A DNA stretch of 64,000 nucleotides from Dehalococcoidia bacterium. Lineage in GTDB: Bacteria > Chloroflexota > Dehalococcoidia > DSTF01 > WHTK01. Each line of letters opens with the position of its first letter. Within the stretch, counting starts at the first letter, position 1. Location of the stretch: the NCBI GenBank assembly GCA_009377745.1, contig WHTK01000011.1, positions 18,527 to 82,526 on the forward strand, written 5' to 3'. A model generated the notes under the pieces. The model was not told the DNA's origin, did no database searches, and worked only from the letters and a program-made list of their open reading frames with translations. Below, one piece after another: positions 2,582 through 20,074 of this stretch. The translations under genes and the position numbers were made by a program.

Positions 2582-3923
2582 TCAGTCTCTCACAAATTTG
2601 ACGATGCCCGTAGAGCCATCGACCTCCAAATCGTCACCATCGGCTATGAGGCGCGTGGCAATGTACGTGCCGACAACAGCGGGAAGCTGATACTCGCGCG
2701 CGACAACGGCGCAGTGCGAGAGCATCCCGCCCGAATCTGTAACGATGGCTGCAGCGTTGAGAAAGAGCGGCGTCCAGGCGCTGGTAGTCGAGCGCGTGAC
2801 GAGGATTTCGCCGGGCTGCAAACGATCGCCATCGGTAAGATGCAGGATTACCCGGGCCCTGCCGCGAGCGCTACCTCTGCTAGCGCCCACGCCCTTGAGC
2901 TCGCTAACGTCATCGGAAGCCTCAGGACTCTGTCCCCCGATCGTGTGCGGCGGCAAAAGTTCACGCCACAGCTCGTAATCTGCCCGGCGCGCCTGTATGC
3001 GGGCGTCGAGGTCCTCGCGCTCACCCCGTCCAGCAGCCTCGATCTCCGAGAACGTAAGAAAGAAGACGTCGTCCACCTGTTTGATCGCCCCGATTGCGAC
3101 GAGCTTGCGGCCGGCAGCCAGACACGGCGCGCGTAGTGAAGCACGCGACAAGCTCATCACGGAGTTGCGACTCCGACCTCCTTCGTCGATACCTCCCGCT
3201 CCAGAAGGGCCAGAGTGTCTTTCGCGAATATGTAGCTATCCGGCGTCACGCTGCCAGAGACGATAGCTTCGCCTAGCCCCCACGTGGCGTTGATCAAAAC
3301 CTGGTCGAGGGCGCCGGTTATCGGGTTAGCTGTGAACGCGACGCCTGAGATCGCTGCCGGGACCATTTGCATGACAACAACCGCCATATCACCCACCGTG
3401 CTCTTGCCGCTCCGGGCCGTGTAGCTATGTACTCGCTCTGACCAGACGGACGCGTAGCAGCGGCGCAGGGCGTCGATAAGCGCCTCCGGACCTGCTACGT
3501 TCAGATACGTATCGAAGAGTCCGGCGAAGGATTGCCGGGCGCCGTCCTCACCGGTCGCAGATGAGGGACCGCGACAGCTGCTATGCCTTTTCGCTGCAGC
3601 TCAGCGTAGGCAGCAAGCACTTCATCTCGTAGATCTAGAGGCACGACTGCTTCGAGGGCCTTCGTGTGCAGCGCCGACGCGGCAGCCACCTGCTTGTTCC
3701 GATCGTATACAGCGGGTGACGGGAGTAGGCGAGTAGTTTCGTTGGCCAATCCAGTCTCGGCTACAAAGTGCTGAAACGCGATGGTGTTAATTACAAAGCC
3801 TTGAGGGACGGCAAAGCCTCCCGCAACAAGCCGCGAGAGCGCTGCGCCTTTGCCACCCGCTCGTGCAGCCTCGTGAGGTCCCGCATCCAACCGGTCGATG
3901 AAGCCTATGTCGCCTCGAGCCAT
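2582..3923 (-). pseudogene. PEP synthase/rifampin phosphotransferase-like enzyme, frameshifted with central domain missing
   Basis: N-terminal ATP-grasp pieces (GGKGAAL, SGVAFTANP, WGLGEAIVSG) are joined at ~3150 directly to the His swivel domain (GGMLSHCAVVARE). Spread over 3 ORF fragments. Confidence 0.85.
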
Positions 3924-4132
3924 TTGGGCACAATTGTAAGCACGCGGGTACTAGCAACGCGGTTCAGAGCTCGAGTACTTAGAAGAAGCTGCCCCAGACG
4001 AACACTATGAGATGGGATGAGAAGGCCGGTTTCCCGCGGGCTCACGTAAGGTGTCCCAAAGGCAGCGCTAGATGCGCAGAAAGGGATGACCAGCGTGAAG
4101 ACACCACGGCACCGGAGATTTCTTGGAGGGGA

Positions 4133-5155
4133 TTGACGGTTGGACTCGACGTTTCGGACAGGTCCAGCAGCCTCTGCTTCTTGGACGAGCGGGGTGAGGT
4201 CGTTGAGGAGGGCAAGGTGCGGACCCACCCAAGCTGTCCTTGAGCAGCGCTTCAGCCCCACTACCACGAAGTCGCGTTATTCTCGAGGTCGGCACCCATT
4301 CTCCTTGGATGAGCCGCTTACTAGAGGACCTTGGGCACGACGTCGTCGTGGCTAATCCCGGCAGGGTTCGCCTGATTGCTGAAAGCGTGCGCAAGACCGA
4401 TCGCTCTGATGCTGAGACCCTTGCCCGATTAGGCAGGGCCGACGTTCACCTGCTGAGCCCGATAACTCACAGGACGGCCCAGGCCCAGGCCGACTTTATC
4501 GCTCATCAGGGCACGGAGCGCTCTTGTCGCCTCTCGGACACTCCTGATCAATCATGTTCGAGGTGCAGTGAAGTCGAGTGGAGCCAGACTTCCCACCTGC
4601 GACGCTTACATGTTCCATACGAAGGTTGGGCCGTCTATCCCGGACGTACTTGCGCCGGCACTAAAGCCGCTTCTTGAGGCCATAGCGCACCTGACTCAGC
4701 AGATTTCGCAGATCGACAAGAGCATCGAAGGTCTCATTCTGGAACGCTACCCGGAGGCGCAAGTCCTTCAGCAGGTACCTGGGGTCGGGCCATTGATTTC
4801 CCTGACCTTCATCCTCACGATCGGGGACCCGCAGCGATTCAAGAAGAGCCGTCAGATAGGCCCTTACCTAGGTCTGGTACCGCGCCAGCGCGAGTCCGGC
4901 GAACGCAATCCGCAGCTGGGGATCTCCAAGTCGGGCAATCAGTACCTACGCCAGCTCCTGGTCAACGGTTCCCAGTACATTCTAGGCTTCCGGGGCTCCG
5001 ATACGGATCTTCGTCGCTGGGGCCTAGCTAAGGCAGGCATTGGCAACAGGAGCGCCAGGAAACGAGCAGTCGTCGCCGTCGCTCGAAGACTAGCAGTGTT
5101 GTTGCACAGGCTCTGGGTGACCGGGGAGGTCTACATCCCTCTCCGGGCAGCTTAG
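4133..5155 (+). pseudogene. IS110 transposase (DEDD + Tnp20 domains), two frameshifts
   Basis: Continuous homology across ORFs 4007..4243, 4240..4677 and 4568..5155. Start position uncertain. Confidence 0.9.
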
Positions 5156-5360
5156 GGCAGGAGGAAGCCGCGTACCGGGCGACTCGCACGATCGGCTGGA
5201 CCGCCGAGTGTCCGTCTATGAGATTGCAGCGCCAGGGCAAACGTACCCCAGTGGGCACCGGGTCAACGACTCATGCAGAGTGCGGATGGAAGCGGGGCAA
5301 ATGCCCAGACGCGGCGGAGAGAGAGCAACGGGCCACCCCACGTTGGCCTTGACGGGGTTA
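5156..5360 (+). ncRNA. Putative bridge RNA/seekRNA of the IS1111 element
   Basis: Non-coding 3' end. 5187-5197 is the reverse complement of right flank 5375-5385. 5216-5224 is identical to left junction 4005-4013. ATGGAAGC 5286-5293 matches right end 5370-5377. Confidence 0.75.
5349..5354 (+). promoter_or_regulatory. Outward-facing -35 (TTGACG) of the predicted circle-junction promoter
   Basis: TTGACG lies just inside the right IR, as is typical for IS1111. Joining the ends would create a weak -10-like GAAGAT 18 bp downstream. Confidence 0.5.
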
Positions 5361-5435
5361 GGCCTTCTCATGGAAGCCGATCGTGGGCTAACGCATGGTG
5401 GATCCAGGCCGCGTGAGCCGAAGAATGATGACGAG

Positions 5436-6683
5436 CTAGGGAGCAATCTCCACACGCGCTCCTCGGTCATACAACTTCGCCCTCATGGCCTCGAACCAGT
5501 TGACGTTCGTGGGTAGAGTCGCCTGGTAGCCGCGGACTTTGTAATAGGTCGGGGCTACTCCAGGTGGCTCGCCCCCGTCCTGCACGGTCCTTACGGCCTT
5601 TAGCAGGGCCCGCCGAGCATGGATGATTGCCCTGTCGGTGGTCCCCAGGCGCTCAAGCGTACGATCTGCAATTCCACCCATGCTCTCCTGGATCGCGCGA
5701 TCTTGCGTATTAGTTCCTGGTATGCCGCTGTACGTCTGAGTCCTCTGAAGCTCACGGTCGATCAAATAACGATTGTCAGCGTTTCTTGTGGATCGGAAGT
5801 TCCTCGTCACGTCAACGTCGACGCCAAATTCGTTCCCGTTGCCCACGGGGAGACGTGCGTCCCGCAGCCAGAGCGCAGCGTCTGGTCCGTCAGTGACTCG
5901 TGGGGCCTCGGCCTCCTGCTGTCCACCTTGCCACCGCGGGGCGCCCAACGACGCCTCTTCAGGCGGGTCTTTGAAGAGAGCGCTACGGTTGTAGCCCATC
6001 GTGTTTTCGTCGTCCATTGGGACCCACATATGGCCGCCGTTGCCGCCATTCTCACCATACGCGAGGAAGCTGTGGAAAGGCATGATCCAGTGATAGGCCC
6101 GGACATCCCGGGTGCTTGTGTCCGCGATCTCGCGGATGCCTCCGTAACAGAAGCCGTAGTCGGTGGGTACGACCTCGACCGTCGGCGACAGTGAGAGGTC
6201 GCGCTCGGGACGACCTGCGGCCCTATCAGCAGCGCGCAAGAGCGGCGGCCGGCCGCTGTGGAGGAATGCGGTGTGTGCTGTGTCGATGCCGCCCTCTAGT
6301 GCCTGGAGCCAGTTGCATTGCTGCCAGACTTTCGACATGGCGCGCTGCTCCGGTGGGACTTGGGTCCAGGCGAAGAGCGGCGGCGCCGGCTTCTTGTCCA
6401 GCGGGCCCAGGTAGGCCCAGACCACGCCGCCAACTTCATAAGTCGGGTAGGCTGGGATGCGCACTTTGTCCTTGAAGTTACTCTCCTCCGGTTCAGAGGG
6501 CATGTCTATGCAGTGCCCTTGGCAATCGAACTTCCAGCCGTGGTAAACGCAGCGGATACCGTTCTCCTCGTTGCGTCCCCAGAAGAGGTGGGCTCGGCGA
6601 TGAGCGCAACGGGCTCCGACGACGCCGACTTTGCCATCGGTCTGACGAAAGGCGACGAGCTCCTCACCAAGAAGCTTGATCGC
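5436..6683 (-). pseudogene. Rieske non-heme iron oxygenase alpha subunit (phthalate 4,5-dioxygenase/LigXa-like), 5'-truncated
   Basis: CAHRRAHL...CVYHGWKF Rieske motif and EGGIDTAHTAFLH Fe site. The reading frame starts at AIKLLGEELVAFR, fused to IS110 sequence, so ~40 N-terminal codons are missing. Confidence 0.9.
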
Positions 6684-7452
6684 CGATCGTCAGTATGAAG
6701 GCCAACGAGATCAGAGGCCCGACGCCAGCCACTTGCTGCAGGTTCAGAGCTTCTGGGTATCGAGTCTCGATCAAGTCGAGCACTCTGCCGTCGGCAGCCT
6801 TGATCTCCGTCGTGAGCTTCTCGATAGCGTCGAGCAGAGATCCCATCGAAAGACCTAAGCACTCCGGCAATGCCGGGCGCGCCTTTCGATGGAAGCTGGT
6901 GGAGTCACAACTGGCGAGCTGGCCTCCCACAGACTTCACTGCTCCACGAACGTGGTTGATGAGCACCGTTCGTGCCGAGATCAGGGCATTGCGACTGCGA
7001 ATCAGCGCGAGATCGGCCTGAGCCTGCGCGCTTCGGTGAATGACAGGAGTCAGGAGCCCGGGGGTCCACACGACCCAGACGAGCCAACGTCTCGGCGTCC
7101 GTCTTGTCATTCTTCCGCGTCGACTGAGCGATCAGCTGTACTCTTCGCGGATTCGCAACGACGACTTCGTTACCAGCCTCGGCGAACAACCTGCTAATCC
7201 AGGGCGAATGAGTTCCTGCTTCCAGGACGACTCTCCCGTCAAAGTCAGCAAATCGCTTGCGCAGACTGCTCTCGGTCGTCCGGAGCCTGCCCTCTTCAAG
7301 GACCGCTCCACTGCTATCTAAGTGGCAGTAGTTCGTGTACTGGTCCGAGACGTCCAGTCCCAAAGTCGCCATGCCAGCCATCCTCCTTGCCCGAAGGCTC
7401 GTGCTCCGGTCACTGTACGACCGGATGGCTGACAGGCCTTCTCATCCCATCT
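6678..7452 (-). mobile_element. Second IS1111-group element, 3' half deleted, transposase frameshifted
   Basis: Same left end AGATGGGATGAGAAGGCC (7435-7452, minus strand). LGLDVSD, VLEAGTH and KNDKTDA motifs. Sequence ends at LTIGD. Confidence 0.9.
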
Positions 7453-10646: not shown

Positions 10647-10885
10647 GCTGCCGCATTATGGCTAAGGAATTCAATCGTATACGTGGGCGACTTGGGCGCA
10701 TATCTGGCGCACTTGAGTCGAGGCTCGCTTTCATCCTCGACATGCTCGGACTTAACTGGGCCATAGCGGGCGAGCAGTCTTACCGGCCAGGACAGAACAC
10801 TATCGCCGGATAGTGCACTCTCCCACGCGGTATTGAAGGCGCATCTTTGGTCGGCTAGCCTTAATCAAATACGTAGGGAGGCGAC

Positions 10886-19798: not shown

Positions 19799-20074
19799 CG
19801 ATCCAGCCATGGTCGCGGGCTCGTGAGTTCATCTCATCATGAGGTAGCAAGCTGCCCAGAACGAGCCCTAGCACTATCGCCGATAGTGTGCGCATGTGCT
19901 GCACCGTGTACTACCGCCCCCGCTTCTACGCATCGCTCGCCGGCCGACCTTCAATTGACAGGGCGGGCAAGGCGGACGTACTTTTCAGTCGGCGAAAGCG
20001 CCAATCGGCTTTGGGTGGCTTATGACAAATGTCGGACAGAGTCGCCGGACAAATCAATAACAGGAGAGGTTATT

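Follow-up and report, generated by a model that had tools for sequence, protein, structure and literature searches.

Features of the locus

The stretch of DNA analyzed here, called the window, comprises 64,000 nucleotides of contig WHTK01000011.1 from a Dehalococcoidia bacterium, and all positions are those of the window. At 4010-5374 it carries an IS1111-family insertion sequence (IS) of 1365 bp, in which a transposase gene is followed by a noncoding region with a predicted guide RNA module; the features of the element described below all lie on the plus strand. The left junction reads ...CACTATG|AGATGGGATGAG and the right junction ...CTCATGGA|AGCCGATCGTG. Extended further on both sides, the junctions are ...GAACACTATG|AGATGGGATGAGAAGGCC... 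on the left and ...GGCCTTCTCATGGA|AGCCGATCGTGGGC... on the right. A preliminary description of this DNA, made from the letters alone, had already outlined the element, and its strings and coordinates for 4010-5374 were all exact.

The left end begins with a 7-bp terminal extension, AGATGGG (4010-4016), the first two bases of which (AG, 4010-4011) are the core that is repeated at 5375-5376. Next to this extension is an 11-bp subterminal inverted repeat, ATGAGAAGGCC (4017-4027), which is the perfect reverse complement of the 11-bp right subterminal repeat, GGCCTTCTCAT (5361-5371); the right end is then completed by a 3-bp extension, GGA (5372-5374). Outside the element, the left half of the target is CACTATG (4003-4009), and the core AG (5375-5376) together with the right half of the target, CCGATCGTG, occupies 5375-5385. 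The noncoding region upstream of the transposase gene is 123 nt long (4010-4132), compared with 219 nt for the downstream region (5156-5374) that carries the guide RNA module.

In the part of Siddiquee et al. 2024 (PMC11187229) that defines the IS1111 group, its members have subterminal repeats of 11 to 13 bp, terminal extensions of 7 and 3 bp, and a noncoding region downstream of the gene. Since the element has the DEDD domains, the 11-bp subterminal repeats, the 7- and 3-bp extensions and the longer noncoding region downstream of its gene, it belongs to the IS1111 group of the IS110 family; the GL-P----S(t)G motif of the transposase and the seekRNA order of the guides are present as well. 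Twenty nucleotides from the right end, the -35-like hexamer TTGACG (5349-5354) is conserved in the family alignment and may be half of a promoter completed at a circle junction. A promoter and terminator scan of 3900-5500 called none in the linear copy.

Guide strings in the noncoding region match the flanks of the element

The right target guide, CACGATCGGCT (5187-5197), is 11 nt long and is the exact reverse complement of 5375-5385, the top strand of the core and the right flank. The left target guide consists of CTATG and the core AG (5216-5222) and is followed by AT (5223-5224), the first two element bases after the core. The whole string at 5216-5224, CTATGAGAT, is identical to 4005-4013, and the part of the left flank that is matched by the guide is CTATG at 4005-4009. 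The right and left target guides (5187-5197 and 5216-5222) overlap on AG. A third string, ATGGAAGC (5286-5293), is identical to 5370-5377, across the right junction. All three strings had been picked out in the preliminary description, and each was verified as an exact match.

An exact match of at least 11 nt to the 22-nt right flank, on either strand, arose in 17 of 20,000 shuffles of the noncoding region. The noncoding region also showed a match of at least 11 nt for 12 of 5,000 random 22-mers of the window. Both guide matches together were obtained in none of the shuffles. Taken by itself, the window partly shows guide matches beyond chance.

Both target guides covary with the flanks in related elements

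A scan of species-representative genomes returned 612 pattern hits, from which 574 relatives were confirmed by tblastn and 78 loci were kept. Both ends and both scaffold anchors were parsed in 61 loci, which represent 57 distinct insertions. One insertion was dropped because its left flank is cut off, and the other 56 were sorted by guide pair into 39 groups. The genome that carries the element holds three further copies of the guide module and several contig-end fragments of related elements, and six more copies are found in two genomes of the same genus. The element ends hardly vary among genomes labelled Chloroflexia, Anaerolinea, Dehalococcoidia, Acidobacteriota, Gemmatimonadota, Planctomycetota, Actinomycetes and Deinococcota, and the clade also occurs in genomes labelled Candidatus Eisenbacteria. 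AG is present on both sides in 53 of the 57 distinct insertions.

The right guide, which follows the scaffold word GACTGCG, has a mean longest exact match of 6.74 nt to its own right flank, compared with 3.55 nt to the flanks of other groups. The left guide, taken as the 7 nt before AGAT(T/G)GCAGC, agrees with its own left flank at a mean of 4.21 positions, compared with 2.04 positions for the left flanks of other groups. Each of the two observed means was reached in 0 of 10,000 permutations of the 39 groups. The 11-nt right-guide match of the element described here is the longest in any group. Cross-matches of at least 8 nt were found in 17 of 1,482 comparisons between a group and the flank of another group, and such high cross-matches probably come from related groups with similar guides.

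Sibling elements of this genome and genus are inserted in variants of the palindrome that forms the target here, and the guides match the site in each case; the covariation includes nonpalindromic targets such as that of locus L009. Covariation between guides and flanks among homologues, on which the preliminary description had staked its reading, is thus present for both target guides. At the level of sequence comparison, this covariation is the decisive evidence for the predicted target guides.

The two target guides face each other in a predicted internal loop

RNAalifold, applied to 40 guide variants, predicted an internal loop between a basal and an apical stem, with the right guide on the 5' side of the loop and the left guide on its 3' side. 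The 5' strand of the basal stem, GGGCG-A-CTC-G (5177-5186), pairs with GCAGCGCCA (5226-5234) according to RNAalifold, the pair counts and the alignment. The apical hairpin, GGAC-CGCCGAGT-GTCC (5198-5213), has three predicted pairs, one of which forms in 39 of the 40 sequences; compensatory changes are seen at the remaining two, in 15 and 20 of the 40. Folding had been put forward in the preliminary description as a check on whether the guides sit in an internal loop, and both were indeed placed in one loop between two stems that covary among the 40 sequences.

Compensatory changes were found at 6 of the 12 RNAalifold pairs. Pairing cells amounted to 97.3%, compared with 86.1% after shuffling and 31 to 58% when the partner strand was slid by 1 to 3 columns; the fold was derived from the same alignment as the pair counts and is favored over the slid versions for that reason. 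The covariation score was 0.343, compared with 0.117, and was reached by 0 of 500 shuffles.

The proposed bridge RNA or long seekRNA would be 149 nt in length (5167-5315), delimited by a putative 7-bp helix between GCCGCGT (5167-5173) and ACGCGGC (5309-5315). Analogous closing helices with other sequences can be drawn for the relatives, with a weak control (own mean of 5.8 and cross mean of 5.1). Because the guides covary with the flanks and sit opposite each other in a loop closed by covarying stems, the view that the 3' noncoding region specifies a predicted bridge RNA or seekRNA is supported.

The donor loop contains one recognizable guide

The donor guide ATGGAAG (5286-5292) is composed of the right end ATGGA and the core AG. 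In L077 the guide becomes ATAGAAG and tracks the right end of that element (CTCATAGA). In the L024 group it reads ATAGGAG, and the right end carries the same change as in L077, so that the tracking is partial. The preliminary description had extended the donor match by one flank base. However, 30 of 35 distinct donor-guide windows have the C that follows ATGGAAG here (5293), regardless of their flanks, and the agreement is a coincidence involving a conserved scaffold base.

The apical part of the second loop is formed by a GCAC/GTGC stem around a small hairpin (5255-5283). The minimum-energy fold closes this stem in 43 of 46 relatives and leaves it open in this copy; in L090 the stem is GCGC/GCGC, a compensatory change. 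When RNAalifold was applied to the donor region, only the GCAC/GUGC stem was returned, because the inner hairpin aligns poorly. The stem of the second module is bordered on its 3' side by (G/A)ATGGAAGC and on its 5' side by ...CCCCA(A/G)C....

A weak candidate for a second donor guide is ACCCCAGTGG (5245-5254) on the 5' side of the donor loop, in which CCCA is complementary to TGGG of the left end. Its covariation with the left end is inconsistent, and we agree with the preliminary description that a second donor guide is not clearly visible. A right-hand donor guide is not obvious in this clade, a point that bears on how IS1111 elements recognize their own ends.

The transposase gene and the probable decay of this copy

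The gene for an IS110/IS1111-type DEDD transposase (4133-5155) has a likely TTG start at 4133 and a stop codon at 5153-5155, and it is read in three frames. Pfam searches assigned PF01548 (DEDD_Tnp_IS110) to the middle open reading frame (ORF) piece with an E value of 5.3e-8 and PF02371 (Transposase_20) to the C-terminal piece with an E value of 2.5e-21. The C-terminal piece also matched NCBIfam NF033542, "IS110 family RNA-guided transposase," at 8.4e-40 and 136.9 bits, where the cutoff for the whole protein is 140 bits; the intact siblings scored 203 to 229 bits with this model. The GL-P----S(t)G motif is present as GLVPRQRESG in the ORF at 4568-5155, and all catalytic and C-terminal motifs of the transposase are retained.

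A DNA alignment with six relatives, together with tblastn using the L010 protein, placed 1-nt insertions near 4224, 4254 and 4495, and the three reading frames of the gene result from these three single extra bases. The alignment with the six relatives further revealed a 16-nt deletion upstream of the transposase start. In the RNA scaffold, the G of the GACTGCG heptamer is gone, while the heptamer is kept in 38 of the 39 other variants (it is AACTGCG in L092), and the basal stem contains a G-A mismatch. A covariance model was built from the 40 guide-variant sequences, with this copy in the training set. The model matched four copies in the genome, among which this copy had the lowest score (38.8 bits, compared with 46.1 to 57.3 bits). 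Because of the three frameshifts and the scaffold defects, this copy is probably a relic that is now immobile on its own.

It was also considered that the element is an intact and active IS1111 member, in which the three frameshifts are assembly or sequencing errors and the recombinase and guide RNA are functional. Two of the three extra bases touch 3-base homopolymer runs in our reading of the alignment, and no in-frame stop occurs inside the shifted segments once the frames are followed. These two features weigh against a relic, since they make an assembly error possible for the frameshifts, and the retention of all catalytic and C-terminal motifs and the perfect match of both guides to the flanks would also fit an intact element. 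On the other hand, overlaps of 126 nt at the contig ends suggest a short-read de Bruijn assembly, in which indel errors would be rare. The open frames of this genome are long (a median of 399 aa at random positions), whereas the first 8 kb of the window forms a local stretch of broken genes. The scaffold, too, carries a deletion and a mismatch, and 16 nt are deleted upstream of the start. We consider an intact element rather unlikely and retain the reading of this copy as a relic.

The preliminary description had presented the element as a new programmable recombinase orthologue. Its membership in an RNA-guided family stands, while this copy, with three 1-nt insertions in its gene and defects in its scaffold, is a poor candidate for such use; intact relatives exist at the L012, L014, L003 and L009 loci. 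In an otherwise intact relative in genome G006 (L010, 1632-2924), the transposase frame, which lacks a stop codon, extends across the whole guide RNA region and beyond the right end, giving 430 aa.

The target is a short palindrome

The restored insertion site, CACTATG-AG-CCGATCGTG, fits the palindrome type CAC-N-AT...AT-N-GTG, of which the left half of the target represents one arm. The genome holds 27 sites of this type, compared with 1 to 4 sites for four scrambled versions. The 27 sites share no extended flanks, and 15 of them have no covering open frame of at least 120 aa, compared with 6% of 600 random positions. Like those of other IS1111 members, the target resembles repetitive extragenic palindromic (REP) sequences: it is a palindrome of short length and is intergenic in most cases. 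These palindromes are the targets of this IS clade.

Two of the palindrome sites lie in the window at 10798-10815 and 19872-19888, and 25 more lie elsewhere (for example, G000:C2:136403, C52:61023, C64:9439 and C65:10588). The palindromes are often paired a few kilobases apart, and an 18-mer core (20 nt when its flanking bases are counted) is found four times in identical form.

Further searches were made with the flanks and the guides. When 18 genomes of the genus were searched with the right flank, the matches were all to paralogues of the neighboring oxygenase gene. Metagenome scans with a 24-nt stretch of the left flank and with both guides as a gapped pattern each gave 0 matches. In a DNA search of 401 genomes of the phylum, in which up to 2 candidates were scored per genome, none was found outside the element's own genome at E values up to 1e-20.

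Neighboring genes and sibling copies

On the right of the element, a LigXa-like Rieske oxygenase gene (5436-6690, minus strand) contains the Rieske motif CAHR...CVYHGW and has no start codon. Its frame runs directly into a truncated second IS, and the N terminus of the oxygenase appears to be deleted; the genome holds many paralogues. The second IS is another IS1111-family relic (6664-7452, minus strand), whose transposase gene carries a frameshift and ends prematurely near 6672, within the PF02371 region. Its left end reads AG|ATGGGATGAGAAGGCC at 7435-7452 with the left flank ...GGCACAATGA, and its guide RNA end is missing because of the truncation inside the PF02371 region. On the left of the element, a gene resembling PPDK_N and phosphoenolpyruvate-utilizing enzymes (2582-3923, minus strand) consists of three ORF pieces in three frames and is probably another pseudogene in the same decaying stretch. 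Compared with most of the window, the first 8 kb has shorter open frames.

Several contigs are closed by a multicopy sibling IS, which is found at the start of C25, at the ends of C2, C38 and C52, and at G000:C59:1-404 (L004). In the C59 copy, the right guide (ACTATTGCC) agrees with the flank on the right of the copies at C38 and C2 (GGCAATAGT) and almost agrees with that at C52. An intact sibling, L003 (G000:C25:3601-4965), lies 19 kb upstream on the same contig as the element. In place of the two AG cores, it is bordered by AA (left) and AC (right), and AA is also what its left target guide and its donor guide read at the core.

Interpretation

We are confident that the element is a single-copy, degenerate member of the IS1111 group and that its 3' noncoding region encodes a predicted bridge RNA or seekRNA with a target-guide loop and a donor loop. 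The anatomy of the element, the complementarity between guides and flanks, the covariation across the family and the loop structure are shown by the sequences and their comparison. In addition to the target guides, the second loop of the predicted RNA would hold at least one donor guide (5286-5292, the right end and AG). By analogy with ISEc11 and IS621, the RNA would be made and bound by the recombinase, the element would once have been excised as a circle, and the RNA-loaded recombinase would have inserted it at AG in the center of the intergenic palindrome CACTATG-AG-CCGATCGTG. No new mechanism is needed to explain the element.

Several results weigh against this interpretation. Folded alone, the sequence of this copy is no more stable than its shuffles (z = +1.22, with 181 of 200 shuffles at least as good), and an Rfam scan of 3800-5600 gave 0 matches at E values up to 1. 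The left guide match by itself is within chance, as a match of at least 7 nt arose in 5,377 of 20,000 shuffles, and 7 of the 39 groups have a right-guide match of only 2 to 4 nt to their own flank. In the C59 sibling, the flank (AGCCCCAATT) is not matched by the right guide of that copy, which points to an assembly join or to a junction that is rearranged or off target. Covariation of the donor loop's 5' side with the left end is seen in L009, L045/46, L073 and L085 and is absent from L003, L024 and L084. Finally, neither the searches described above nor an exact search of the genome found an empty site, circle junction or second copy with the same guides, and the assembly contains no unoccupied target within 1 mismatch and seven at two mismatches. 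Since no empty site, junction or second copy was found, the insertion at the exact position rests on the conserved ends of the family.

It is conceivable that the target is recognized through DNA, for example by a single-stranded or cruciform right end that pairs with the target, with no transcript involved. The linear copy, in which no promoter or terminator was called, would be consistent with such recognition. However, the G-U pairs and compensatory changes in the stems are as expected for an RNA, and the parts of PMC11187229 and PMC11208160 that deal with ISEc11, ISPa11, ISKpn4 and IS621 report that RNA copurifies with the protein and is required. Recognition through DNA is therefore very improbable. 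Even less credible is that the matches between guides and flanks are due to chance or are a by-product of the palindromic target without a guiding role: the 7-nt left match is within chance for the window and the halves of the imperfect palindrome resemble each other, but the rare 11-nt match begins exactly at the junction, both segments occupy fixed positions of a conserved loop, the guides change together with the flanks in relatives, including the nonpalindromic L009, and the ISEc11 experiments in section 10 of PMC11187229 show that such segments determine the target.

With a predicted bridge RNA or seekRNA as the preferred reading, the guide RNA of this broken copy could still be transcribed and loaded onto intact sibling recombinases, namely, those of L003, C70 and possibly the multicopy C28/C59 type. 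The L003, C70 and C28/C59 copies share nearly identical element ends and RNA scaffold with this copy, and the C28/C59-type gene is split across two contigs. We regard such loading in trans as improbable. If it did take place, dead copies would be a guide reservoir that retargets living recombinases to other palindrome variants, or the relic would be mobilized in trans.

The locus itself is ordinary, being one more IS1111-type RNA-guided element, in a degraded state. The clade, on the other hand, spans phyla, has an AG core and keeps its ends and scaffold nearly invariant. Its 39 natural guide variants, known together with their sites of insertion, make it a natural data set for how IS1111-type guides are tuned.

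Comparison with known systems

The element resembles ISEc11, ISPa11, ISKpn4 and ISPst6, in the sections of PMC11187229 devoted to them, in its PF02371 DEDD transposase, GL-P----SG motif, 11-bp repeats and 7- and 3-bp extensions. It also shares with them the long downstream noncoding region, the order of the guides and their overlap at the insertion point. According to section 9 of PMC11187229, the top-strand match in IS1111 seekRNAs lies 5' of the bottom-strand match, and the two overlap in the target, in ISEc11, ISPa11 and ISKpn4. The preliminary description had regarded the placement of the right guide before the left guide as a new arrangement; the order is correct, but it had already been published for these three elements in that section. 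Right before left is the norm of the family, since IS1111 seekRNAs are so arranged while IS621 has the opposite loop polarity. Durrant et al. 2024 (PMC11208160), in the relevant part, predicted bridge RNAs for 93% of IS1111 elements and placed them in the right end.

The proposed length of 149 nt is near the norm for long seekRNAs, which are 148 to 172 nt in Table 1 of a 2026 review (PMC13604230). The same table gives the insertion points as TG*AA for ISEc11, GG*CG for ISPa11 and AA*CG for ISKpn4; the insertion point and overlap here are AG, a different value of the same feature. Unlike the IS1111 elements with seekRNAs, the element has soil Chloroflexota-type metagenome-assembled hosts and a frameshifted transposase and is known from its sequence alone. 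The best plasmid-borne relatives have ~36% protein identity.

The element is also similar to IS621 and ISCro4 (PDB 8wt6 and 9t56), which in the part of PMC11208160 on loop pairing have two internal loops able to pair with both DNA strands and a shared 2-nt core. The transposases of IS621 and ISCro4, to which the protein is distantly related, provide the nearest solved structures (E = 1.2e-8 and 2.8e-8). Whereas IS621 has its RNA in the left end, the module here is in the right end and follows the gene. The polarity of the loop differs as well: in IS621, according to that part of PMC11208160, its 5' side pairs over 8 to 9 nt with the bottom strand, and here it pairs over 9 to 11 nt with the top strand. 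For both reasons, the location of the RNA and the top-strand pairing of the target loop on its 5' side, an IS621-type bridge RNA layout was considered and set aside. In contrast to IS621 and ISCro4, the subterminal repeats are long here and a second donor guide is not evident.

Tobes and Pareja are said to have treated REP-targeting IS110/IS1111 elements in 2006. Unlike the REP targets of IS621, ISPa11 and ISPpu9/ISPpu10, the palindrome here is ~18 to 20 bp and is without extended shared flanks. As in these REP-targeting elements, in the portion of PMC12288879 that covers them, the target is the center of a short, mostly intergenic palindromic repeat.

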